Assembly (NCBI GenBank): GCA_022616195.1
Contig: JAKEFG010000001.1
Location: forward strand, 1 to 58,843
Direction of reading: 5' to 3'
From: Candidatus Wolfebacteria bacterium
Lineage (GTDB): Bacteria; Patescibacteriota; Minisyncoccia; Phycocordibacterales; EsbW-18
DNA length: 58,843 nucleotides
The notes under the pieces were generated by a model, which saw nothing but the letters and a program-made list of their open reading frames with translations, was not told the origin of the DNA and did not search any database. Both the position numbers and the translations under genes were made by a program. Below are positions 2,247 to 57,105 of the stretch, in pieces. How positions within the stretch are numbered: position 1 is the stretch's first letter; each line of letters opens with the position of its first letter.

Positions 2247-3287
2247 ATGTCAAGTACCCCCCGTACAAAGCACAAAAAGACCCTCGGAGACACACCCGTC
2301 GGGCGAGAAGCACAGTTTCTGGACCAAACTTTACGCCCGACAACATGGAATGAATACGTCGGGCAAAAGCATATCAAGGACAATGTCGCCATTCTTCTTG
2401 CTGCGGCGCGTGGACGCGGGCACGCACCAGAACATCTTCTCTTTCACGGTCCGCCCGGGCTGGGAAAGACTACACTTGCTCACCTCATCGCGCACGAGAC
2501 GGGTGCGCAGATGCGCGCAACGTCGGGTCCTGCCATCGAACGCGTCGGCGACCTTGCCTCAATTCTCACCAACCTGTCGCCCGGTGACATCCTCTTCATT
2601 GACGAGGTGCACCGGCTCAACAAAATTATTGAGGAGGTGCTCTATCCTGCGATGGAGACCGGTGCTTTAGATATCATCATTGGCAAGGGTCCCTCAGCAC
2701 GCACTATTCAGCTTGAGTTGCCACCATTTACACTCATCGCAGCGACAACACGCATTGCGCTCCTCTCGGGACCATTGCGCTCTCGTTTCTCGGGTGGCAC
2801 CTTCAAACTCAACTACTATACCGAGGGTGAGATACAAAGTATTCTTGAGCGCTCCGCCCGACTCCTCGGCATTCCGGACGACGGCGAAGCACTTATCGAG
2901 ATAGCCAAGCGCAGCCGCGCCACACCGCGCACCGCAAACTACCTTTTGAAGCGCGCCCGTGACTTTGCACAAGTTGAAAAACTCCCATTCTCTCGTAAGA
3001 CCGTCTCTCAAGCACTTGTGCTCTTGGGTGTTGACGATGTTGGACTCTTTCCTTCAGACCGCGTGGTGATTGAGACAATTATTGACAAATTTGACGGCGG
3101 ACCGGTGGGACTCACCACGCTTGCGTCGGCAACTTCAGACGATGCTGCAACCATCGAAGAGGTGTACGAACCGTATCTGATGCAACTCGGGTTTCTTGAG
3201 CGCACGCCGCGTGGGCGCATCGTTACCAAACGCGGCTACAAACACCTCGGCAAGCGTACCCTCAACGCGCAAGAGAAACTTTTATAA
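2247..3287 (+). CDS. ruvB: Holliday junction branch-migration helicase RuvB
   Basis: LRP..EYVGQ, GPPGLGKTTLA, LFIDEVHRL, EEVLYPAME, EPYLMQLGFLERTPRGR. Confidence 0.97.
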   Translation: MSSTPRTKHKKTLGDTPVGREAQFLDQTLRPTTWNEYVGQKHIKDNVAILLAAARGRGHAPEHLLFHGPPGLGKTTLAHLIAHETGAQMRATSGPAIERVGDLASILTNLSPGDILFIDEVHRLNKIIEEVLYPAMETGALDIIIGKGPSARTIQLELPPFTLIAATTRIALLSGPLRSRFSGGTFKLNYYTEGEIQSILERSARLLGIPDDGEALIEIAKRSRATPRTANYLLKRARDFAQVEKLPFSRKTVSQALVLLGVDDVGLFPSDRVVIETIIDKFDGGPVGLTTLASATSDDAATIEEVYEPYLMQLGFLERTPRGRIVTKRGYKHLGKRTLNAQEKLL

Positions 3288-3292
3288 CAACC

Positions 3293-4222
3293 ATGGCGAC
3301 TTTTGACGACAACGACAAGCTGCGCACAGAGGCGGAAGAAGACACCCGCGCCGCCAAGGAACGGGAGCGTATTCGCGAGGAGCGCAAAAAGCGTTCGGAG
3401 CGGGAACGACTTGAGCGTGAACTTGAGCAGGTAAAGCGTGAATTGGAGCGTGAGGAAAAAACCGTTACGTCCCTAACCGGAGAGCTCAACGAGCTTGAAG
3501 ACGCGCTTGAAACAGAGAAGCGGGCAAGCGGCGTTGCGGCTCGCCGCGACACGGGCACGGACCGGGACGCGGACGAACTCGAGAAAAAACAAGGGGAACT
3601 CTTCAAGCTCAAGAACAAGCAGGGGACCGCGGCAAGCCACCTGAAAACGCTTGAGCGGGAGCTTCCGAAACTCGCCGACCGGGAAAAGGGCGTCGCGGTT
3701 CGCGCGGAACGCGAGGAAAAAGAACTCGCGGCCCTACGGGAAACGGAGTCCGCGCTCCTCCGCGACGAGGAAGAAACCAAACAAGCTATCGCCGAGCTCA
3801 AGCGGCAGCTTGCCGAACGCGAAATCAATTTGAGAGATCTGGAAACGAAACTCGGGGACGCGCGGAAGAAAGAAAAAGCGCACGAGGAAATACTGCGGCA
3901 TACGGAGGACGAGCGCGAAACGGGCGAGGATAGCGCGGAACGGAAAGTCGAGACGGAGCGTCTCAAGCATGATATGCAAACGATGGAGGAGACAAAAAAG
4001 CGCCTTGAGCGGGAGGTCGCCGAACTCAAGAAAAAAGTCGAGGAGCGGGAGGAAGAGCGACAGGAAGTGGTGCGAGGAGCGGCACGTGCCGATGAGGAGC
4101 GCCGCCTGCACATTCGCCAGCGGGAAGAGCGCGAGCGCAAGCTTCAAATTGCGAACCAAAACGTTGTGCGCCTCACAGAACACATCAAAAGACTGGAGAG
4201 AAAAATACAAGGAGCAGTATGA
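3293..4222 (+). CDS. Long E/K/R-rich coiled-coil protein, function unknown
   Basis: 309-aa ORF starting 5 nt after ruvB, highly charged heptad-like sequence. Confidence 0.75.
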   Translation: MATFDDNDKLRTEAEEDTRAAKERERIREERKKRSERERLERELEQVKRELEREEKTVTSLTGELNELEDALETEKRASGVAARRDTGTDRDADELEKKQGELFKLKNKQGTAASHLKTLERELPKLADREKGVAVRAEREEKELAALRETESALLRDEEETKQAIAELKRQLAEREINLRDLETKLGDARKKEKAHEEILRHTEDERETGEDSAERKVETERLKHDMQTMEETKKRLEREVAELKKKVEEREEERQEVVRGAARADEERRLHIRQREERERKLQIANQNVVRLTEHIKRLERKIQGAV

Positions 4223-4306
4223 AATATATGTGTGCCGCAAGAACTCTTCACATGAGTCGTAGGGCACTGCTTGATATGCGATACGGGATGCGCGATACTA
4301 ACGCTC

Positions 4307-4840
4307 ATGAGCGGACACTCCAAATGGTCTAAGGTTAAACATAAGAAAGCGGTAACGGATGCAAAGAAGAGCCGCGAGTTCAGTAAACTCGTGCGGCTCA
4401 TCAAAGCGGAGGCACGGCAGACAGGCGGCGATATAAACAGTCCAAAGTTGAAGGCGGTAGTTGAGAAAGCAAAAGCCGTCAACATGCCCAAAGATAACAT
4501 TGAACGGGCGGTACGAAGCGCGACCGACACCAGCGGCGAGAGCTATGATGCGGCCACATATGAAGCGTATGGTCCCGGCGGCGCCGCAATGATTATTGAG
4601 ATACTCACAGACAACCGCAATCGCGCGGCGGCGGAGATAAAACATATTTTTTCCAAGCGCGGACTCGCTATTGCCTCGCCAGGGGCTGCAAGCTGGGTAT
4701 TTTCCAAAGACGAGCGTGGCGAGTGGCGACCAAAACAAACGCTCACTCTCAATAACCCAGACCGCACGAGTTTGAACGAGCTTATTGAGGAGCTTGAAAA
4801 CAACGACGATGTACAGAATGTATTCACTAACGCCGCCTAG
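4307..4840 (+). CDS. yebC: YebC/PmpR family protein (short form)
   Basis: MSGHSKW start, NMPKDNIERA, YEAYGPGG, TDNRNR, DDVQNVFTN. Confidence 0.95.
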   Translation: MSGHSKWSKVKHKKAVTDAKKSREFSKLVRLIKAEARQTGGDINSPKLKAVVEKAKAVNMPKDNIERAVRSATDTSGESYDAATYEAYGPGGAAMIIEILTDNRNRAAAEIKHIFSKRGLAIASPGAASWVFSKDERGEWRPKQTLTLNNPDRTSLNELIEELENNDDVQNVFTNAA

Positions 4841-5622: not shown

Positions 5623-5665
5623 GAATAAGAAATACCCCACACAATGTGTGGGGTATTTCTTATTC
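5623..5665. terminator. Strong hairpin between convergent genes
   Basis: GAATAAGAAATACCCCACACA-A-TGTGTGGGGTATTTCTTATTC, overlapping the tyrS stop codon. Confidence 0.75.
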
Positions 5666-9089: not shown

Positions 9090-10186
9090 CGGTTCATTGG
9101 CATCACGAGGTATGTAAACGTTTTGTCGCCGACGCCCTGTATCACCAGTGGTTTTCCCTCCCCACTGAATTTAAGTGTGGTGCTGTCAGCGGTGAGCGAC
9201 TGAAAACTATCGGTGATGTATTTATGGTTGAACCCTATTGCGAGTTCCTCTCCAACAAGCGCCGCTTCGACTTTTGTGGTGTTCTCACCAATCTCGGGAT
9301 TGTTTGTTTCAACAGTAAATTGTTTTTTCTTTGGGGAGATGTTGAAAAGCACCTGATTGAACTTGTTTGAAAAAATAGTTGAGATTTTGAGTGTGTTTAC
9401 CAGGTCGTCTTTAAGAACCGTCGCCTCTGTCGTAAAACTGGTGGGGATGATCTGTTTGTAGTCGGGAAATGTTGCGTCAATAATGCGAGTGGTGAGATAT
9501 GTTTCACCGACAATAACCGACAGTTGATTCTCGCTTATTTGGAGTGTTGCGACGTCTCCTGCTTGGTCCAGCGTCCGGACAATTTCAGTAATGTTTTTAA
9601 GTGGTATGAGAAGCGGGGAAAACGAGTCGACTCCTTTGACTCTTAGCCGCTTCTCCGCAAGCCTGAATGAGTCTGTTGCTGCAAAAACAACGTCCCCGCG
9701 CTCTTCAACAACCAACACGCTTGAGAGCTCTGGCTTCATGCTTGATGGCGATGCCGCATACCACACCGCACGAAGCCCCGAGGCAAGATCTTTTGACGGA
9801 AGCGAGATTGTGTTGGTTTGTTTTGGTTTTGGAATGGTTGGAAAGTCTTCGTGTGGGAGTGTTTTAACGCGCGCCACGCTTCGTTCCGTCGCAACCTCCA
9901 AAACACCATCTTTCGTGCTAAGTACAACCGACGATGAGTTTGGGTTGTTTGCAAGAAAACTGTTCAATATGTCGCCCGGCACCGCCACCACGCCCTCATT
10001 GGTAATTTGTGCTGGGACTTGTATTTCAATACCCAAATCAAGGTTGGTTGCGCGAACGGTAAAGTTTTTCTTCTCGGCAACAAGGAGGACTGCGCGGAGA
10101 ATGGTAAGACTAAGGTTTTTCCCGGTTACTTTTTCCGCTCGAAAAACCATTTGCTCTAGTGTGTTTTTTGGTAGTGTTACGCGCAT
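9086..10186 (-). CDS. dnaN: DNA polymerase III beta clamp
   Basis: ATNLDLGI, ATDSFRLAE, FPDYKQIIP, YLVMPM; next to dnaA. Confidence 0.97.
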   Translation of the reverse strand: MRVTLPKNTLEQMVFRAEKVTGKNLSLTILRAVLLVAEKKNFTVRATNLDLGIEIQVPAQITNEGVVAVPGDILNSFLANNPNSSSVVLSTKDGVLEVATERSVARVKTLPHEDFPTIPKPKQTNTISLPSKDLASGLRAVWYAASPSSMKPELSSVLVVEERGDVVFAATDSFRLAEKRLRVKGVDSFSPLLIPLKNITEIVRTLDQAGDVATLQISENQLSVIVGETYLTTRIIDATFPDYKQIIPTSFTTEATVLKDDLVNTLKISTIFSNKFNQVLFNISPKKKQFTVETNNPEIGENTTKVEAALVGEELAIGFNHKYITDSFQSLTADSTTLKFSGEGKPLVIQGVGDKTFTYLVMPMNR

Positions 10187-10439
10187 GAAACAATAATATA
10201 ATAATGGTTATTAAGAGAATTTCTGTTTTTTTAGATAAAACATATTACTATTATTAGTGTTGTTGATAGGTGGAAAACCAAAACAAAACCCAACAGTCTT
10301 TGTTTTTTCAAGTATATCGGTGCGTAAGCGTGGGATAAAACATCTATGATATTGTTGACAGCTTTTTACCAACTATTAAACTCTCAACTTACACACAAAC
10401 TATCAACACACACAACAAAACTATTCCACAAAGCTGTCC
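10187..10439. promoter_or_regulatory. Probable oriC (dnaA-dnaN intergenic region)
   Basis: AT-rich tract at 10187-10260 followed by DnaA-box variants: TGTTGATAG 10261, TTACACACA 10389, CTATCAACA 10400, TATTCCACA 10422. Confidence 0.7.
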
Positions 10440-19082: not shown

Positions 19083-19493
19083 TTACTTTTGTTCATTCGT
19101 TTGGTCGTGTACGTCCAAACTCCATGCTAAATCTTTTAGTTTGCTATCTGAGAGTTTGGGAACGTAGAGCGCATCTTGTGTCGCCGCCCCGACCTTGCCC
19201 GCGTCTGGTTTTTTGGGTTCTTTCTTCCAAATGTAGAGACGGCTTGTAGTGAAATACTGGAAAAAAGCCGCGAGAACGTCAATGAACGGCTTGTTGTTGT
19301 ATTTATAAAATGCAAGCGCGATGGCAAGACCTGCGGCAACGGCCATCAAAGGAAGCGCGATGAGTACGGGCAGGAAGGTGTAGAGCAGGAACGCGAGTCC
19401 CGCGCCGCCAGCGAGATAAACGAATTGTTTGAAGGTCAGAGGACCGATGACCTTGTCCTCTACCTCAATAAATTGTGGCACCTGGAATCTCAT
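19083..19493 (-). CDS. PrgI-family (VirB3-like) membrane protein
   Basis: MRFQVPQFIEVEDKVIGPLTFKQF followed by two TM helices. Confidence 0.88.
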   Translation of the reverse strand: MRFQVPQFIEVEDKVIGPLTFKQFVYLAGGAGLAFLLYTFLPVLIALPLMAVAAGLAIALAFYKYNNKPFIDVLAAFFQYFTTSRLYIWKKEPKKPDAGKVGAATQDALYVPKLSDSKLKDLAWSLDVHDQTNEQK

Positions 19494-19522
19494 ACTTCGC
19501 ATGCGAAGTATGAGATTCCAGG
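19481..19522. repeat. Perfect 42-bp palindrome covering the prgI start codon
   Basis: CCTGGAATCTCATACTTCGCA|TGCGAAGTATGAGATTCCAGG. Confidence 0.9.
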
Positions 19523-19527
19523 AAGTT

Positions 19528-19954
19528 CAAATGTCAAATGACAAATGTTAAACGATGTGTTCATACCTCATGAATTCAACTTTGTATTAGAAATAATCGT
19601 TGAGAATATCTTAACAAACTCTTCTGCCTCTTGATAAAAATATCGACACTCTTGTTTCTTATCCTGATTGGCTCGAGCGATAACCCGCATCCAGTACATT
19701 GTTTCTTTCGCTTCCTTTCGAGAAATACCTATCTTGTGTACAAAATCCCTTTTTGATTCGGCGACATCGGCTTCCATATAGTTTGCTCCGATACTTGTTC
19801 CTGATTTTGTCGCTTGGTATACCAGCGGTCGGTTTATGGTATCCCGGGACAGTGTTTTCAAGAAAGTTATAAGATTCTCTGAGAATTGTGCTGTGCGTTC
19901 TGCCAAATCATATTCTTTCCCTGTGTGTTTTTGGATTTTGTCATTTGACATTTG
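19528..19954. repeat. 18-bp perfect inverted repeats (heptamer CAAATGW units) flanking four-helix-bundle gene 1
   Basis: CAAATGTCAAATGACAAA at 19528-19545; TTTGTCATTTGACATTTG at 19937-19954. Confidence 0.9.
19568..19951 (-). CDS. Four-helix-bundle protein (23S rRNA intervening-sequence protein family)
   Basis: DLAERT..Q..KSGTSIGANYMEA..AESKRDFVHKIGISRKEAKETMYW. Confidence 0.9.
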   Translation of the reverse strand: MSNDKIQKHTGKEYDLAERTAQFSENLITFLKTLSRDTINRPLVYQATKSGTSIGANYMEADVAESKRDFVHKIGISRKEAKETMYWMRVIARANQDKKQECRYFYQEAEEFVKIFSTIISNTKLNS

Positions 19955-19983
19955 GATTTATCGAATGATTTTACCGTACAAAA

Positions 19984-20607
19984 TCATTCGATGGGTTCCC
20001 GGTACGGATCTTGCGCGGCGGGTGGTGCATGAGGCACATCTCTATCCAGGGCAACACGGTGCTTCTCTGTCTCAGTGTGCACGGCCCCTTTGAGTTTTGC
20101 TTCAACTATGTCGCGCGGCATTGTGCGCTCGACGCCCGGGGCTGATGTTGTGGTCCTGGATGTGGGTGCGAATCCCGGTTCTTTCAGGGATGTTTCCGGC
20201 AGTGGAGTGTCAGCTTGTGTACGTTCCAATGTTTGCTCCTCGTGTTGTTCCCGGCTTTCTTCATCCCAGAGTTGTTTGAGCGACTCGCGTATAGGAGTGA
20301 AAATGAGGCGGTTGACGTCGTTGGTGACTGCCGCGGCGGACTCCGGAGAGAATTTTGCGTGTCGCTCCAGGTTACGCCCGAAATCCTCCAGGGGCTCTAC
20401 GCCGAGAAGCGCGAGCATGGTTTCGTTTTCCAGTGTTTTACTTTCGTCAACGCGCAGGTGGTTTTTCTGCGCAATTTCAAGAAAGTGCGTGTCAAGTTGT
20501 GAGTCGCTGATTGCGCGCTTTAGATCTGCCGGAAGCATGGAGAGCCGTTCGGCAATGATGCGCTCAAATTCGATGTCGCTTATTGGTTGTGTGTTATTTA
20601 TTTTCAT
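19984..20607 (-). CDS. Hypothetical protein
   Basis: LENETMLALLG..IFTPIRESL and C-terminal DPYREPIE; start overlaps the upstream gene. Confidence 0.75.
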   Translation of the reverse strand: MKINNTQPISDIEFERIIAERLSMLPADLKRAISDSQLDTHFLEIAQKNHLRVDESKTLENETMLALLGVEPLEDFGRNLERHAKFSPESAAAVTNDVNRLIFTPIRESLKQLWDEESREQHEEQTLERTQADTPLPETSLKEPGFAPTSRTTTSAPGVERTMPRDIVEAKLKGAVHTETEKHRVALDRDVPHAPPAAQDPYREPIE

Positions 20608-22813
20608 CTGGTTTTGGTTCTTCTTTGGGTTTTTCATCTGGTTTTTCTTTCTCTTCACCCTTCAAAATTTTCTCAACTGCCTCTTTAATTTGTGCCTCCG
20701 GCGTCTTGCCGCGGAGAGCTTCTCTTGCGTTATCGCGCTGTGCCCGTCCCGAGAGGGTCAGGCGGCTCGCGCCGAGATCGCGCTCCGAGGAGAGGCGTTT
20801 CTGGAGCTTTTCCATCACCGCGCGCTCGGCCTGGACCGTGCGGTACTCGCGGTACGCGAGCGCATACTCTTTTTTCTCGACATTAACGGACTGGTCGAGT
20901 GCCGCCTGCAGTTCGACCACCCGCGCCGTGTCTCCCTTCTGCTGCGCCGCAACGAGCTTATTCACCAGGTTGTCGATATTCCCTCGGATAGTGCCCGCTT
21001 CTTGCGAGGTGACGGTTCGTGCGGCATCGACAAGCCGTTTTTCGCTCCCCTGCTCCCACTTGTACTTCTCTCGTTCTTGCTCCAGCTTCAGGCGTGCGCG
21101 AAGAACGTTGTTTTCTAGGGCCAGACGCTTGGGGCTGGTGGTTTGCGTTTGGGCGAGAAGTCTCTTCTGTTCCGCCAGCTCTGCCTTGGCTCTTCTTACG
21201 GGCTCGCGGCGGGCGCGCTCCACGGCTGCCGCGTCAGAAAGCTTCTTCTCCTCATCCAGCCGCTTTCGCCGGTCCTTGAGAAGCTTCTCATAGCCGCCAC
21301 GCTTCGCCTGCCCCATCTGAATGCCCGGTATGCCGAACGTACTCCGCGCGTCAAAGCTCGCCTTTTGGGTCCAGTCGCCAGTTCTCAAAAGACCGCGACC
21401 GAGCATTCGTGCGGCAACATTTTGAGAGCCGGCGAGATTACCGGCAAATTTCGATTCCCGGAGTGCTGCGCCCGCCAGCCCGAAAGTCCTGCGTCCGACC
21501 GCAGCAACAGTGCCGAACGTCGCCTTCCCGGCCATCTTGGTCGCCCAGTCCACGGCGCCCTTGGCGCTCTTGGACGCCATTGTTTTCGCGATGATGATTG
21601 CCGCGACGAGGAAGCCGATGACGATGATGAAGTTGAACGCGATGACGATGAGATCCGCCCCCTTGAACGCCTCCGCGAGGTTGCCGAGGTCGGGTTTGTT
21701 GATTTTTTCAACGAACGTCGGGTTGCTGATGATGATGTAGGAGAGCGATGCGAGGAGCATGAAAACGGGCGCCCAGATTACCTGGTCCCAGAGGGGCGTC
21801 CACCACTTGCGTGACCACTCGCTTCCCTTAGGGAGAATGAGACCGAGAAACATCACTGGCGAGGTGACGAGGAGGATGACAAGAATCACAAAGCGTATTT
21901 CAAGAAGAATCCCGACGGCGAGGAACACGAACGCCGCAATGAGAAGGAAGATGGTCACGAAGAGCTGTCGCACGACGAGCGAAATATCGGCGAAGTCAAC
22001 TGCCTCGGCGGAGAAGAGAGTAACAAGCCGGAGGTGTTGCATGAACGCGGCGGAGAAGCCGATGAGGTTGATGTTGCCTATGTTGACTTCGGTTTCGGAT
22101 GGCGTCGAGGTGCCGGTATTTACGCGAGCGGAGGCGCCGCCCGCCGCTGCCGCGATGGGTTTGTAGAATTCGTAAGTGAGGATGTTTGATGCGTCAATGA
22201 TGACGCGGGTAAAGAAGAACGAAAAGTTGATGAGGAGTGCTGCAACGATGATACTGGCGAGCATTTTCTTGCCGCCGAAACGTTCCACACGGAGAATAAT
22301 CGTGATTGCAAGGAAGAGGAGGATGAAAATGAAGAGCGCATTCATCACGTCGCGGATGAGTTCCCACGCGATGGTGATGCTTCCAATGCTCCGTATGAAA
22401 TCCGCCGCGTGAACGACAGTGATATTGATGGCGATATTGAGCACGACCCCCGCGATGCCGAGGAGTCCTGCGGCGAACGTGACGAGTATGGCGGCGACCA
22501 CGTTCAGAATAGGACTAGTAGCTGCCTGTATCACCTTTCCGGCAGAGTCTTTAATTTCCTCAATCGGGTTTGGGTTTAGGCACCTAAATATACTATTCCC
22601 ATGAATGTCGTATGATGGCCCGGCGCAGAGAACTGGATCCGGACAGGTTGCGACACATTCATTGTAGGTAGGGTAATTTTGTGCCTCAGCGTGGGGCACG
22701 GGCAACATGAAAGACGGCACATACGCCGCGAGGAGAGTCGCCGCCACAATAAGGGCGAGTATGTACCCTTTGTTGCTGCGGGGACGCTTCTTCTGTGATT
22801 GATTGTGTTGCAT
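20594..22813 (-). CDS. VirB6/TrbL-like polytopic membrane protein with coiled-coil tail
   Basis: WELIRDVMN..FIFILL, ALLINFSFFFTRVIIDASN; about 9 hydrophobic segments; charged C-terminus. Confidence 0.72.
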   Translation of the reverse strand: MQHNQSQKKRPRSNKGYILALIVAATLLAAYVPSFMLPVPHAEAQNYPTYNECVATCPDPVLCAGPSYDIHGNSIFRCLNPNPIEEIKDSAGKVIQAATSPILNVVAAILVTFAAGLLGIAGVVLNIAINITVVHAADFIRSIGSITIAWELIRDVMNALFIFILLFLAITIILRVERFGGKKMLASIIVAALLINFSFFFTRVIIDASNILTYEFYKPIAAAAGGASARVNTGTSTPSETEVNIGNINLIGFSAAFMQHLRLVTLFSAEAVDFADISLVVRQLFVTIFLLIAAFVFLAVGILLEIRFVILVILLVTSPVMFLGLILPKGSEWSRKWWTPLWDQVIWAPVFMLLASLSYIIISNPTFVEKINKPDLGNLAEAFKGADLIVIAFNFIIVIGFLVAAIIIAKTMASKSAKGAVDWATKMAGKATFGTVAAVGRRTFGLAGAALRESKFAGNLAGSQNVAARMLGRGLLRTGDWTQKASFDARSTFGIPGIQMGQAKRGGYEKLLKDRRKRLDEEKKLSDAAAVERARREPVRRAKAELAEQKRLLAQTQTTSPKRLALENNVLRARLKLEQEREKYKWEQGSEKRLVDAARTVTSQEAGTIRGNIDNLVNKLVAAQQKGDTARVVELQAALDQSVNVEKKEYALAYREYRTVQAERAVMEKLQKRLSSERDLGASRLTLSGRAQRDNAREALRGKTPEAQIKEAVEKILKGEEKEKPDEKPKEEPKPDENK

Positions 22814-29210: not shown

Positions 29211-29268
29211 TTAGGTATTGGGCTCTGGGCTCTAGCGGAAAAGCTAACGCCTAGTGCCTAGCGCCTAA
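29211..29268 (+). repeat. Gene-less inverted pair of CTAGYGC heptamer repeats
   Basis: TTAGGTATTGGGCTCTGGGCTCTAGC-GGAAAA-GCTAACGCCTAGTGCCTAGCGCCTAA. Confidence 0.75.
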
Positions 29269-29302
29269 TGGGCTAGGGGGTCTAGATAACCCGAGATAAC
29301 AG

Positions 29303-36804: not shown

Positions 36805-36838
36805 GTGTTTTAGTCGGCTAGTGCCTAGAGCCTAGCAG

Positions 36839-38374
36839 CTACAAGCTGGTTAGTTGTTTTGGCCGGTACTGCAACGCCTCAAGGATGTGTGATTCGGAAA
36901 CATCGTCCGCACTCTCTAGGTCGGCAATCGTGCGCGCAAGTTTAATCACTTTGTGATACGCGCGGGCGGAGAGGTCCAGCTGTTTTGCCGACTGCTTGAG
37001 CACTTCCTCCACGTCGGGCGCGAGCGGCACAAATGTCTCCAGTTCTTTGACGCCCATATCGCTGTTGGTACGCACCGCGTCGTTCTCGCCGAACCGCGTC
37101 CTCTGCAGCTCGCGCGCACCGCGCACCCGTTCGCGTATTGAAACCGACGACTCGCCCTTCTTGTGTTTTTGCGAAAGTTTTTCGTGGCTCACGGCACCCA
37201 CGTCAAGCCAGAGATCAATGCGGTCAATAATGGGTCCTGAAAGTTTTCTGCGGTAGCGCTCAAGATTTGCCGGAGCGCACACGCAGGTTTTCCCCGTACC
37301 GAAGTTGCCGCACGGACACGGGTTCATCGCGGCAAGCAAAATAAAGTTTGCCGGAAATTGGGCGGAGCCGCGCGCGCGTGAAACGGAAACAACCCTGTCT
37401 TCAAGCGGCTGGCGGAGCGCTTCAAGCACCCGCCGTTCAAATTCCGGGAACTCGTCAAGAAACAAAACACCGCGGTGTGCGAGTGTGATCTCTCCGGGCT
37501 TGGGGACGGTGCTGCCGCCGACGAGCGAGATGTGGCTTGCGGTGTGGTGTGGACTGCGCAGGGGCGGGTGTGTCACGAGGTCGTCGCGCAAGGCACCCGC
37601 GACCGAGTGAATGCCGGTTACCTCAAGTACTTCGTCAAAGGAGAGGGGCGGCAGAATTCCCGTGAACGCTTTGGCAAGCATGGTTTTGCCTGTTCCCGGC
37701 GGGCCGTACATCGCAACGTTGTGCCCGCCCGCGGCGGCGATTTCTAGCCCGCGTTTCGCCGTTTCCTGCCCGCGCACGTCGGCAAAATCAATCACGTAGA
37801 GGGGCTCGCGGTACTCTACAATCGTCTGCGGATGTGGCGAGAGAAACGTGTTGGTCTTTTGATTTAAGTGGTCAATGATGTCGGAGAGCGAATCGGCGGC
37901 GAATACCGCAACGCCGTCAATAAGCGCCGCCTCGCGCGCGTTTGCCTCGGGTACGAAAATATCGGTGAAGCCGCGCCGCTTCGCCTCGCGCACGAGCGGC
38001 AGGACGCCGCGAAGCGGACGCAGCTCGCCGTCAAGCGACAGTTCCCCGAGAAAAAGTTTCTTCTCGGGGTTGAATTGCATATCGCCCGCCGCGAGAAGGT
38101 ACGCAAGCGCAATCCCAAGGTCAAAGTTCGCACCCTCTTTTTTGAGGTCGGCGGGCGCAAGCGAGATGACGATTTTCTGGTTCTTTTCTTTTGGCGACTT
38201 CAAGCCGGAGTTCTTGATAGCGGCGGCGAAGCGGTCGCGCGCCTCCTCCACCGCTTTGTCGGGAAGCCCCACAATGGAGAACGCATGAAGCCCGCGCGCG
38301 AGGTCGGCTTCAATGACGATGATGTGCGCGTCAAGCATTGACGTCTGCGCACTGTACACTTTTGCAAATGCCAT
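36839..38374 (-). CDS. comM: ComM/YifB Mg-chelatase-like AAA+ ATPase
   Basis: IVGLPDKAVEEAR, GELSLDG, GPPGTGKTMLA, PGEITLAHRGVLFLDE, AAMNPCPCG, ARTIADL. Confidence 0.95.
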   Translation of the reverse strand: MAFAKVYSAQTSMLDAHIIVIEADLARGLHAFSIVGLPDKAVEEARDRFAAAIKNSGLKSPKEKNQKIVISLAPADLKKEGANFDLGIALAYLLAAGDMQFNPEKKLFLGELSLDGELRPLRGVLPLVREAKRRGFTDIFVPEANAREAALIDGVAVFAADSLSDIIDHLNQKTNTFLSPHPQTIVEYREPLYVIDFADVRGQETAKRGLEIAAAGGHNVAMYGPPGTGKTMLAKAFTGILPPLSFDEVLEVTGIHSVAGALRDDLVTHPPLRSPHHTASHISLVGGSTVPKPGEITLAHRGVLFLDEFPEFERRVLEALRQPLEDRVVSVSRARGSAQFPANFILLAAMNPCPCGNFGTGKTCVCAPANLERYRRKLSGPIIDRIDLWLDVGAVSHEKLSQKHKKGESSVSIRERVRGARELQRTRFGENDAVRTNSDMGVKELETFVPLAPDVEEVLKQSAKQLDLSARAYHKVIKLARTIADLESADDVSESHILEALQYRPKQLTSL

Positions 38375-38377
38375 AGT

Positions 38378-38781
38378 CTAGGCGCTAGCGATTAGGCGCT
38401 AGGCTCTAGCTTGGTAATAAAGACATTGAGCACTTTCATAATCTCTCCCAACAATATTTCAATACGAGAATAATCGAGTAATTTGGTTTCATGAAGGCGC
38501 TTGGCAATTTCAATTTGGGTCTCAAGTTCTCCGCCCGAGCCGGACGCAATAAGCAGAAACTGTTTCATCTGCTGATTGCTCCCGCGCAGTTTTCCTTCAG
38601 CTATGTTTGATGGAATGGAAACAGCCGCGCGGCGCATCTGTGAAGTCAGACCGTAGATCTCTTCTTTCGGGAATTTTCTTGTTACAATGTAGACCTCTTC
38701 TACAAGCTCTACGGATTTTTGCCAAACAGTCAGGTCACGATAGGTTTTCATAGCTAGCGCCTAATGCCTAGTGCCTAATGG
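38378..38781. repeat. Inverted heptamer (CTAGYGC) repeat arrays flanking four-helix-bundle gene 2
   Basis: CTAGGCGCTAGCGATTAGGCGCTAGGCTCTAGC at 38378-38410 versus GCTAGCGCCTAATGCCTAGTGCCTAATGG at 38753-38781; third array at 36818-36836. Confidence 0.85.
38392..38751 (-). CDS. Four-helix-bundle protein (23S rRNA IVS protein family)
   Basis: YRDLTVWQKS..FPKEEIYGLTSQMRRAAVSIPSNIAEG..IASGSGGELETQ. Confidence 0.95.
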   Translation of the reverse strand: MKTYRDLTVWQKSVELVEEVYIVTRKFPKEEIYGLTSQMRRAAVSIPSNIAEGKLRGSNQQMKQFLLIASGSGGELETQIEIAKRLHETKLLDYSRIEILLGEIMKVLNVFITKLEPSA

Positions 38782-38786
38782 CTGGT

Positions 38787-39191
38787 TCACTCCGGGCGGA
38801 GCGAGTCGGCGTGCGTGACGCATGTCAGCGCTGCGGGATTTGCTTCAAGACGTTTTACGTCGATCGCTTCTCCACCAACCTCACACGTACCGTAGGTGCC
38901 GTCTTCAATTTTCTTGAGTGCGCGTTTCACATTGTTGTAGCGGATTTCTAGCTCGCGCAGAACTGCGGTGTTCTCCTCATACTCTTCAATCGCATCCGCC
39001 GCTTCATTCTTATCCGCCTGCATCACATCAATGTTTTCGGGCACCGGCTCCCAGTCCCCGGGGTTGCTCGGATTGATGCGTCCCACGGTCTTGAGTTCAC
39101 CCAAAAGCTTCTGCTCTTCGGCGAGCAGTCTTTCTTTGAAATTATTCAGCTGTTCTGGTGAGAGGTCGCCCATAGTTGTTGCGGTGTCCAT
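38787..39191 (-). CDS. TraR/DksA-family protein
   Basis: ADKNEAAD coiled-coil tip; RALKKIEDGTYGTCEVGGEAIDVKRLEANPAALTC. Confidence 0.88.
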   Translation of the reverse strand: MDTATTMGDLSPEQLNNFKERLLAEEQKLLGELKTVGRINPSNPGDWEPVPENIDVMQADKNEAADAIEEYEENTAVLRELEIRYNNVKRALKKIEDGTYGTCEVGGEAIDVKRLEANPAALTCVTHADSLRPE

Positions 39192-39197
39192 GGTACC

Positions 39198-39235
39198 AGA
39201 AAAGCCGCGCGGGCAATAGCCCGCGCGGCTTTTCT
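39198..39235. terminator. Bidirectional terminator hairpin
   Basis: AGAAAAGCCGCGCGGGC-AATA-GCCCGCGCGGCTTTTCT. Confidence 0.85.
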
Positions 39236-45158: not shown

Positions 45159-45218
45159 CAAAAAACACCGGAAATAGAGTGTCCGAATGGGAGGACACTC
45201 TATTTCCGGTGTTTTTTG
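45159..45218. terminator. 26-bp-stem terminator after the NYN gene
   Basis: CAAAAAACACCGGAAATAGAGTGTCC..GGACACTCTATTTCCGGTGTTTTTTG. Confidence 0.85.
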
Positions 45219-53644: not shown

Positions 53645-53762
53645 ACGAGGGATTTTTGTTTGTGTCCTTTTAATAATCCCCAAACTATGGGAACAAAGCG
53701 ACAAAAACACAAAATATTGGGGATAACTCTGTGAGTATGTGTAAAAGACATGTCCGTTAGAA

Positions 53763-53804
53763 ACTAAAAACTAAGGACTAAAAACTAAGGACTAAAAACT
53801 TAAA
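53763..53804 (+). repeat. Six tandem heptamers, ACTAAAA/ACTAAGG
   Basis: ACTAAAA ACTAAGG ACTAAAA ACTAAGG ACTAAAA ACTTAAA. Confidence 0.85.
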
Positions 53805-53874
53805 ACACTCTTACACAGAGCCATATTTGTCAAAAAGACGTCCTTTATGTGTTAATTGTTTCATGTGAAACGTT

Positions 53875-54282
53875 ATGAGGACTGAAAAGAGGTTTATCGG
53901 AGACATTGGGGAGGAGGTTGCCTGTCGGTTTCTCAAGAAAAAAGGGTATAACATCATTGAGCGGAACTATCTCAAAAAATGGGGTGAGATTGACATTATT
54001 GCACGCAAGTCGGGCGAACTACACTTTGTTGAGGTAAAAACGGTGCAGTCAAAAGTTGAAAGTTCAAAGTCCAAGAATGTTTCACAGGAAACGGAAGGGT
54101 ACCGCCCGGAGGAAAACGTGCACCCGGCAAAGCTCAAGCGTCTCGCCCGAACCGTGGAGACCTATCTATTGGACAAAGGCGTATCGGACAGTGTGCCGTG
54201 GCAAATTGATGTGGTAACTGTTCTCTTGGATCTAAAGGACAAAAAGGCGAAGGTGGATATGCTTGAAAATGTTATTTTGTGA
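53875..54282 (+). CDS. yraN: YraN (UPF0102) endonuclease-like protein
   Basis: GDIGEEVA..GYNIIERN..GEIDIIA..HFVEVKT. Confidence 0.92.
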   Translation: MRTEKRFIGDIGEEVACRFLKKKGYNIIERNYLKKWGEIDIIARKSGELHFVEVKTVQSKVESSKSKNVSQETEGYRPEENVHPAKLKRLARTVETYLLDKGVSDSVPWQIDVVTVLLDLKDKKAKVDMLENVIL

Positions 54283-57067: not shown

Positions 57068-57105
57068 GCCTCATCGTACTCGACCACGGTCGAGTACGAT
57101 GAGGC
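57068..57105. terminator. 18-bp-arm inverted repeat after the beta-barrel gene
   Basis: GCCTCATCGTACTCGACC-AC-GGTCGAGTACGATGAGGC. Confidence 0.7.

Follow-up and report, generated by a model that had tools for sequence, protein, structure and literature searches.

A four-helix-bundle gene bracketed by inverted heptamer arrays at an operon junction of Candidatus Wolfebacteria: a candidate insertion cassette resembling rRNA intervening sequences

Introduction

Why does a small four-helix-bundle (4HB) gene stand between two genes of an operon resembling a type IV secretion system (T4SS), enclosed by inverted repeats which are themselves built of tandem heptamers? The question is raised by the locus at 19.5 kb in a contig of 58,843 nt from Candidatus Wolfebacteria bacterium (GenBank assembly GCA_022616195.1, contig JAKEFG010000001.1; the whole contig is called the window below). 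The gene belongs to PF05635/TIGR02436, a large family of unknown function which has been annotated in thousands of genomes; its members have repeatedly been described as “associated” with CRISPR systems, diversity-generating retroelements (DGRs) and other loci. From the letters of the window, it had been predicted that gene and repeats form an insertable cassette like the intervening sequences (IVSs) of rRNA genes, acting in mRNA instead. We favor, with a probability of roughly 0.55, the reading that the open reading frame (ORF) and its two arms are one copy of a widespread, IVS-like insertion cassette which acts through pairing within the operon transcript and RNase III. A cassette of this type would comprise a PF05635/TIGR02436 gene bounded by inverted arrays of approx. 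4–5 heptamers, the unit differing from cassette to cassette.

Results and Discussion

Anatomy of the cassette

A repeat search recovered the predicted perfect inverted repeat of 18 bp around the 4HB ORF (19528–19545 and 19937–19954), which extends to 23 nt at 91% complementarity (19523–19545 and 19937–19959), the arms being 391 nt apart. In the whole window, each strand contains this 18-mer a single time, even if two mismatches are allowed; the mean expectation is 0.01, and none of 100 shuffled sequences gave two matches. The suspected period of 7 nt is real, as 14-nt direct copies stand twice in tandem and a lag-7 scan gave 17/21 and 16/21 for the arms. As predicted, the start codon of the 4HB ORF (19951–19949) lies inside the upstream arm, and the other arm stands 35 nt before the prgI start. 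The cassette is inserted in sense orientation exactly at the stop/start junction of two operon genes. Its left edge is marked by the C-terminus of the upstream host gene (...DPYREPIE), which is conserved in relatives. At the other edge, ATG 19493 opens with MRFQVPQF, an N-terminus common to PrgI homologs and found likewise in relatives, so that, judged by sequence, this codon is most likely the true start of prgI. The label “T4SS-like” is fair, as the neighboring genes encode a PrgI-family protein, a VirB4/TraG-like ATPase and a large membrane protein.

The encoded protein matches PF05635 (E-value 4.9e-14, 52.9 bits, cut-off 33.8) and TIGR02436 (E-value 8.8e-21, 74.2 bits, cut-off 24), and the solved structure nearest by sequence is PDB 2RLD (E-value 1.8e-15, residues 15–126). 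Comparison by eye with the family motif GxxRxxxSxxxNxxE, as given in PMC3936711, showed that S, N and E are kept, with K for R and Q for G.

Both edges of the cassette carry an additional inverted repeat (Table 1). The 5′ arm of the junction hairpin next to the upstream arm consists of the last codons and the stop codon of the host gene, the 3′ arm of an inverted copy thereof. In the palindrome at the opposite edge, the promoter-distal half is the prgI start (ATG 19493 and the preceding 9 nt) and the other half is its inverted copy; the public contigs break at this palindrome, yet run through its center. Templated strand switching and selection for hairpins at RNA ends are both possibilities for the origin of the palindrome. 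Inverted copies of the host gene's own last 11–15 nt were seen just outside the arms in three of eight cassettes at the prgI junction, namely in the window and in the relatives G025 (L169) and G033 (L165). In the window, the first 13 nt of prgI are also present as an inverted copy beside an arm, and the perfect 42-nt palindrome is absent from the closest cassette (in G003). Junction hairpins are not general among the cassettes, as perfect stems of at least 9 bp were found just outside the upstream arm in 6/105 and just outside the downstream arm in 1/105.

Table 1. Coordinates of the cassettes, their host genes and solo heptamer arrays in the window.
Feature	Position	Strand	Description
Upstream host gene of the T4SS-like operon	19984–20658	−	224 aa, no Pfam match
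Junction hairpin	19960–19992	−	13-bp perfect stem, 7-nt loop; in predicted minimum-free-energy and centroid structures
Upstream arm	19926–19959	−	approx. 4 tandem heptamers of CAAATGT/CAAATGA type (sense strand); perfect core 19937–19954
4HB ORF	19568–19951	−	127 aa, PF05635/TIGR02436
Downstream arm	19520–19557	−	approx. 5 tandem heptamers complementary to the upstream arm; perfect core 19528–19545
Perfect palindrome	19481–19522		42 nt; folds as a 19–20-bp hairpin over the prgI start
prgI	19083–19493	−	PF12666; start at 19502 in the mechanical ORF list
Second cassette, downstream heptamer array	38379–38409	−	ends a few nt before the ATG of the next gene
Second cassette, 4HB ORF	38392–38751	−	119 aa, PF05635 (E-value 6.2e-35)
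Second cassette, upstream heptamer array	38752–38787	−	CTAGGCx/TTAGGCx type (sense strand)
Solo heptamer array	36818–36847		CTAG type; at the next gene junction; complementary (score 12) to 38379–38409
Solo heptamer array	29239–29271		CTAG type; intergenic
Heptamer array	53757–53807		approx. 7 heptamers (CTAAAAA/CTAAGGA); intergenic, beside two tRNA genes

Insertion states of the prgI junction

The predicted insertion was examined by synteny in 41 related genomes, 37 of which contain PrgI homologs; 30 loci were read. In the ancestral arrangement, the upstream gene stops and the prgI ATG follows within a few nucleotides. Such empty junctions measure 1 nt (G023 and G015), 4 nt (G021), 5 nt (G034), 21 nt (G030) and 31 nt (G006) and, by eye, approx. 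7, 11 and 19 nt (G024, G032 and G035, respectively). A 4HB cassette sits exactly at this junction in eight genomes (G000, which carries the window, and G003, G004, G007, G019, G025, G031, G033). Among these eight cassettes, 4HB subtypes vary and no fewer than five heptamers occur; the subtype and heptamer family of the window are shared only by G003, the two proteins being 50% identical. The arrays start 0–10 nt past the host stop codon and end 0–8 nt before the prgI ATG, and the ORF-bearing inserts are 423–533 nt long. Reduced forms were found as well. In G010 the junction is filled by a 120-nt ORF-less hairpin of two inverted heptamer arrays, in G016, G014 and G008 ORF-less arrays flank prgI on both sides, and G029 holds a decayed copy of 117 nt in which the upstream array and approx. 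30 codons of the 4HB gene are kept. G009, G010 and G011 have a 4HB gene on the other side of prgI, immediately downstream. The genus g2 alone contains junctions that are empty, occupied by different cassettes or filled by ORF-less arrays. The finding of the same junction either empty or filled by other cassettes supports the conclusion that arms and ORF are an inserted cassette. At this junction, three loci of the genus (L144 in G009, L146 in G001, L155 in G011) show a hairpin element of approx. 130 nt upstream of prgI, without heptamers and with terminal inverted repeats of 12–15 nt.

Heptamer-bracketed 4HB genes in other genomes

G000 comprises 631 kb in 24 contigs and contains five PF05635 genes, on contigs C22, C9 and C4. 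All five have, by eye, inverted heptamer runs on both sides, and each has a unit of its own. Four reach an inverted-repeat (IR) score of at least 10 and the fifth scores 9. Two 4HB genes of this genome lie inside the ribosomal-protein cluster, one in the gap between S17 and L14 (by eye) and one between adenylate kinase and methionine aminopeptidase. The second example predicted at 38.4–38.8 kb of the window exists, with arms at 38379–38402 and 38754–38777 (24 nt at 88%) made of a different heptamer. Its ORF stands between a DksA/TraR-like and a ComM-like gene (both named by eye), and its protein keeps the full R...S...N..E pattern. Since the solo array at the next gene junction is complementary to the downstream array of this cassette (Table 1), the ComM-like gene is bracketed too.

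Among the 41 relatives, PF05635 is patchy, with 61 matches in 22 genomes; 60 of these loci have full flanks. An IR score of at least 10 was reached by 52 of the 60 loci, compared to 10 cross-locus pairs and 2 shuffled sequences, and the median scores were 15, 7 and 7, respectively. Lag-7 self-similarity of at least 15/21 was detected in 32 upstream and 27 downstream flanks, while lags 4, 5, 8, 10 and 11 gave 0–3. Similarity of either orientation was lacking at seven loci, among them all four matches below the Pfam cut-off. A second set was drawn across phyla, taking one genome per species and the best 80 of 597 confirmed places, of which 75 had full flanks; this sample is biased to one subfamily by its search pattern, VS[IV]PSNIAE. 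It spans Saccharibacteria and other members of the candidate phyla radiation (CPR), Bacteroidota, Clostridia, Acidobacteriota, Gammaproteobacteria, Planctomycetota and Methanophagales. Here, 54 of 75 loci scored at least 10, compared to 5 cross-locus pairs and 1 shuffled sequence; lag 7 was found upstream in 38 and downstream in 46 loci, lag 8 in 11 and 9 loci, respectively, and other lags in 0–3. Thus, the enrichment of inverted repeats over shuffles which the prediction demanded of other 4HB genes is clearly present in both sets.

The consensus heptamers of the two arms agree (rotational distance of at most 1) in 35 of 51 loci with clear arrays, compared to 77 of 2550 cross pairs. The stems have a median length of 24 bp (quartiles 19–30) with 87% Watson-Crick pairs and enclose a median of 401 nt, and the arrays are inverted only in 89 cassettes and direct only in 8. 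Plasmids gave 32 records matching the 4HB query, 15 of them from Nostoc (11) and Calothrix (4). Flanking sequence was read for four plasmid genes. Inverted heptamer arrays enclose the genes of N. punctiforme and Riemerella; in Nostoc PCC 7120 both flanks contain arrays, though without a clear inversion, and in Calothrix an array is confined to the downstream flank.

Among 104 loci with readable neighbors, the cassette is oriented along both neighbors in 78 and against both in 6, which fits a dependence on host transcription. The ratio of non-synonymous to synonymous substitution rates (dN/dS) was 0.01–0.24 in 10 of 12 protein pairs, the other two being saturated.

On the sense strand, the upstream arm is poor in C (A 868, T 817, G 687, C 367), and it is frequently rich in stop codons. 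As a 7-nt unit is not divisible by 3, the frame shifts from one unit to the next, and a run of at least three units with TAG or TAA closes all reading frames. This three-frame stop holds only in part: upstream arrays stop all sense frames in 27/68 and all antisense frames in 16/68 cases, 12/68 contain no stop at all, and downstream arrays stop all three frames in 11/60 (sense) and 19/60 (antisense). In eight loci (L012, L015, L016, L017, L027, L031, L020, L010), a spacer of approx. 45 nt between upstream array and ATG holds a conserved promoter-like stretch, consisting of a TTTAGA...TTGAAC block and a GAGTAT or TAGAAT block.

Relation to rRNA intervening sequences

The 23S rRNA gene of Coxiella burnetii contains an IVS of 428 nt which encodes S23p and whose 28-bp terminal stem is cut by RNase III; 2–3 tandem GACAGAT units and one degenerate unit stand just before the S23p ATG, the copy number varying among strains (PMC4990558). 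The cassettes share this design. Terminal inverted repeats close a stem around a PF05635 ORF of approx. 120 aa, tandem heptamers lie between the 5′ arm and the ATG, and the size is similar (approx. 430–490 nt). In contrast to an rRNA IVS, the host at 19.5 kb is an mRNA operon junction and not an rRNA gene, according to Rfam and the protein-gene flanks; we therefore file the cassette as a broad variant of the IVS kind and not as a member. It further differs from the Coxiella IVS in that the ORFs here are under purifying selection and excision by RNase III is a proposal. The accessible parts of PMC4990558 and PMC11270868 do not state that heptamer-built arms are general among rRNA IVSs.

Other insertions connect the two settings. 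In CPR bacteria, 23S_rRNA_IVP ORFs occur in insertions of both 16S and 23S rRNA genes (PMC11270868), and a 23S_rRNA_IVP gene between cmr3 and cmr2 of Pleurocapsa (PMC3936711) reads as another operon insertion. Among the relatives, one cassette (L023 in G033) with five heptamers on each side lies inside an Rfam match to bacterial small subunit (SSU) rRNA of 549 bits, approx. 120 nt from its 5′ end. This SSU match (1366–2853) covers model positions 1–1533 in 1488 nt despite the approx. 430-nt cassette inside; possible reasons are deletions in this 16S rRNA gene or stretches left out by the alignment. Of the predicted IVS-type cassette acting in mRNAs, the design thus agrees with ORF-bearing rRNA IVSs, down to a relative's copy in 16S rRNA, and the action on RNA is a matter of the model set out below.

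A model for action at the RNA level

We propose that the cassette is co-transcribed with the operon and that its arms would pair in the transcript, forming the perfect 18-bp helix (23 bp with two mismatches) and looping out the ORF together with its start codon. RNase III would cut this helix as it does in rRNA IVSs, releasing a 4HB message of approx. 400 nt with a very short leader and splitting the operon RNA. The two junction hairpins, i.e., the inverted copies of the host gene ends, could then cap and protect the new ends of the host RNA, and the 4HB protein probably binds the heptamer arrays. The predicted fold of the minus-strand RNA 19470–20000 has a minimum free energy (MFE) of −144.1 kcal/mol (z = −6.05), with 0/100 shuffles as stable, and the MFE and centroid structures both contain the closing helix of 18 bp as well as the two junction hairpins. 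An RNase III gene is present in G000 (C6:25791–26183, E-value 3.3e-41).

Several results weigh against this proposal or are neutral. Only 32/106 cassettes have an arm that reaches to within 10 nt of the ATG, and a leader of 30–70 nt is kept inside the loop in 40/106. The predicted hiding of the start codon hence holds at 19.5 kb and is not general, so that the original interpretation is supported in part: the cassette and its IVS likeness stand, general start-codon hiding does not. In 112 stems, mismatches on the sense strand comprise 90 G·U and 96 A·C; without an excess of G·U, nothing marks the sense RNA as the molecule that pairs. When the heptamers of one arm were put in another order, the IR score fell only from 17.1 to 15.5, and 1 of 23 loci stood out, placing complementarity at the level of the repeat family without a fixed register. 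Both tests for RNA-specific pairing are neutral. Arrays in direct orientation only were found in 8 cassettes (1/60 and 7/75), several of them in Bacteroidota. A search for sequencing runs returned three DNA runs from one study and no RNA run containing this DNA; the contigs of those DNA runs showed no variant, joint or empty-site form, and neither outcome has a bearing on expression. The authors of the Coxiella study consider its ORF decayed and probably not translated (PMC4990558), and unlike that case as they read it, purifying selection on the proteins here indicates that the ORF is used. With regard to insertion, no target-site duplication was seen in seven occupied junctions set beside empty ones. 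Near-identical ORF-bearing copies at different sites were absent from an all-vs-all blastn comparison of 141 cassettes with 400-nt flanks, and recent transposition was rejected on this ground.

Heptamer arrays beyond the cassettes

G000 contains 54 lag-7 arrays, 35 of which are not inside a crudely predicted coding sequence (CDS). Lags 5, 8 and 10 gave 4, 9 and 7 arrays; lags 6 and 9 gave 34 and 33, almost all within coding sequence. CTAG-type units are frequent among the arrays and stand at gene junctions (three such arrays lie in the window); unit families include CTAGGC, TAGGGT, GTAGT, AAAGT and CGAAAT types, with at least six families among solo arrays. In samples of 100 kb, four relatives without PF05635 matches had 1, 4, 1 and 3 lag-7 arrays, and four relatives with matches had 12, 21, 40 and 31 (other lags: 0–4 in either group); as these eight genomes are kin, the association of array load with 4HB genes is a lead.

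One array-type 26-mer, which is the downstream arm of the fifth cassette of G000 (C4:48732–48757), is nearly invariant and occurs 20 times in G004, 11 times in G001, 8 times in G002 and 7 times in each of G003 and G012. The only matches beyond the taxonomic family, two in number, are in G031, where a reversed-pattern control matched as often; this control gave 0 matches within the family and 1–3 only in G025 and G031. Since G001 has no PF05635 match, a strict dependence of arrays on a 4HB gene was rejected. In G004, heptamer arrays stand at nearly every junction of a ribosomal-protein operon (C2:44900–56600, L205; by Pfam L23, S19, L22, L24, L5, S8, L6, L18, S5 and L15), often with two unit families side by side.

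Alternative explanations

It is highly improbable that the 4HB gene is an ordinary, vertically inherited gene whose flanking repeats arose by chance from low complexity or codon periodicity. Short two-copy repeats are common, and the arrays at lags 6 and 9 show what codon periodicity can produce. The period of 7 is, however, no multiple of 3, most arrays of G000 (35/54) lie outside coding sequence, and the gene is patchy among the relatives; cross-locus and shuffle controls are far below the scores of the own loci. The IR controls, the consensus shared between arms and the expectation for the 18-mer refute this explanation. Harder to set aside, and possible if on the doubtful side, is the view that the arrays are primarily binding sites, in RNA or DNA, for a ring of the encoded 4HB protein reading approx. 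five 7-nt units, the complementarity of the arms being secondary. The protein would regulate itself through its own flanks and bind solo arrays at other gene junctions in trans. A conserved core with a spacer within each heptamer, by analogy with ring proteins reading NAG triplets, was rejected as tested, as deviations between units are spread over the columns (0.61 observed, 0.62 random) and no such core is visible. Array lengths vary little around a mode of five units (36/44 upstream and 30/42 downstream arrays at 4–5.99 units, the method overestimating by up to approx. one unit), PDB 2RLD comprises five chains and the solved relatives are pentamers; a homopentameric toroid is also cited for the 4HB protein in PMC4990558. 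Solo arrays are found all over G000, and genomes with 4HB genes contain 12–40 arrays against 1–4 in those without, a comparison resting on only eight related genomes. The more alike two proteins are, the more alike are their heptamers, though the trend is weak (mean distance 3.85, 3.32, 3.09, then approx. 1); cassettes with a GxxExxY gene (see below) share one repeat family across five taxonomic families, and the neutral G·U and unit-order tests are in accordance with binding sites as well. Against this stand the 11 copies of the 26-mer in G001 despite its missing PF05635 match and the predominance of inverted over direct arrays (89 to 8), which simple binding sites would not require.

We consider it unlikely that the cassettes are mobile elements at the DNA level, with the arrays as transposon-like termini, ORF-bearing copies as the autonomous form and ORF-less hairpins comparable to miniature inverted-repeat transposable elements (MITEs), moved by the 4HB protein and host enzymes or by recombination between arrays of the same family. 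Presence and absence do vary within one genus: G015 is empty, G003, G004 and G007 have three different cassettes, and G010, G016, G014 and G008 have ORF-less hairpins. The 26-mer, with its 20 copies in G004, is found in 11 of 16 genomes of its taxonomic family, and a Saccharibacteria cassette with 62% protein identity and the same CTAGGC-type heptamer sits at a different site. The symmetric mismatch spectrum would fit maintenance at the DNA level. However, the 141 loci contain no near-identical ORF-bearing copies at different sites, no target-site duplication was seen at the occupied junctions compared with empty ones, and profile searches found no known catalytic domain in the 4HB protein. 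Several pairs are alike over the ORF only and differ in their arrays (e.g., L109 and L080 with 78% identity, −10 to +5), and the bias toward sense orientation (78 to 6) is unexpected from DNA transposition alone.

Significance of the cassettes

The anatomy and generality of the cassettes are solid, and the mechanism proposed for an IVS-like element in the operon transcript is directly testable. No statement on heptamer-built inverted repeats around PF05635 genes outside rRNA was found in the literature, though subscription journals or supplements may hold one; the open literature gave no link between 4HB genes and genome-wide heptamer arrays. The 4HB family gains a defined genetic packaging, i.e., inverted arrays of a private heptamer at stop/start junctions, which it shares with rRNA IVSs. 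Three puzzles, namely the role of IVS proteins, the many heptamer repeats of some bacteria and the 4HB genes in unrelated operons, become one testable question. For annotation, 4HB genes inside cas or secretion operons are to be read as insertions and not as components of these systems. The proposed mechanism would mean that the tiny CPR genomes tolerate, or use, elements which break essential operons at the RNA level. As a speculative and rather doubtful extension, 4HB proteins and heptamer arrays might constitute a pan-bacterial system in which rings read runs of approx. five units, while cassettes and the commoner ORF-less hairpins punctuate operon transcripts for processing or translational control. 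The rRNA IVS and the cyanobacterial heptamers would be its two faces, and GxxExxY genes a sister cargo which possibly cuts. If true, its spread to stop/start junctions would include ribosomal-protein operons and rRNA genes.

Comparison with other repeat systems

The DGR accessory protein Avd has a homologous four-helix-bundle fold (PMC10053308). Two other 4HB paralogs of G000 match the Avd profile NF033474 weakly (E-values 1e-4 and 3e-4, below cut-off), the 38.4-kb protein reaches 22.5 bits at a cut-off of 80, and the 19.5-kb protein gave no match. In contrast to Avd genes, none of the five 4HB copies of G000 has a reverse transcriptase, template or variable repeat beside it; the cassette does not qualify as a DGR avd locus.

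Cyanobacteria contain tandem heptamer arrays known as short tandemly repeated repetitive (STRR) sequences. Like these and the direct TAACTGA repeats of Beggiatoaceae (PMC4679880), the arrays described here are runs of 2–6 tandem 7-nt units, intergenic and near start codons. STRR and TAACTGA repeats, however, use one unit per genome in direct orientation, whereas the cassettes have private and mostly inverted units. No link of these repeats to 4HB genes is described; the terms 23S, S23 and four helix are absent from PMC4679880.

MITEs and REPINs (hairpins formed by paired repetitive extragenic palindromic, REP, sequences; PMC3116915) are likewise short, intergenic and bounded by inverted repeats, and their non-autonomous copies far outnumber coding ones. 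The arms found here differ in being tandem repeats without unique terminal sequence, and no target-site duplication accompanies them. Near-identical copies at different sites concern the ORF-less 26-mer (20 places in G004, 11 in G001) and not ORF-bearing cassettes. REP-associated tyrosine transposases (RAYTs) or other transposases did not turn up, though no search was aimed at them. We do not class the cassettes as MITEs on this evidence. A locus of Haemophilus influenzae combines a heptameric simple-sequence repeat with an RNase III-targeted element in the 5′ untranslated region (PMC12721329). It resembles the cassettes in having heptamers in a transcribed leader and in that RNase III processing matters there; according to the accessible text, it differs in being a case of phase variation with one direct array, no enclosed ORF and no 4HB gene.

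A second cargo and further features

The packaging is not restricted to 4HB genes. On contig C20 of G000 (L217, 1301–1756), a 130-aa PDDEXK_3/GxxExxY ORF between ftsE- and ftsX-like genes is enclosed by an inverted repeat of 44–49 nt made of short tandem units. Among small free-standing PF13366 ORFs of the 41 genomes, 6/6 are packaged likewise, with one repeat family across five taxonomic families and a period of approx. 8–9 nt. Array-bracketed cassettes of small ORFs thus form a class with at least two cargoes; the open literature yielded no description of them. On the same contig (2433–5283) lies a DGR candidate with a reverse transcriptase at 2550–3566 (minus strand), the only RVT_1 match of the genome, and a 127-nt repeat pair (3886–4012 and 4288–4414, 87%), the second copy of which occupies the 3′ end of a 284-aa ORF. 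Inverted copies of the repeat flanking the GxxExxY ORF bracket the entire candidate.

At gathering thresholds, Rfam gave nothing at either cassette of the window and only three tRNAs elsewhere in it. A third inverted repeat (9805–9830 and 10274–10299, 26 nt at 81%) was rejected as a cassette, as it spans a gene start with one arm inside the CDS; the gene encodes 366 aa and, by eye, looks like dnaN, the gene for the beta clamp of DNA polymerase III. A further tandem heptamer array lies at 54045–54076. Finally, four perfect hairpins (45159–45218, 5623–5665, 57068–57105 and 39198–39235) with stems of 17–26 nt and loops of 1–8 nt have a terminator-like look.

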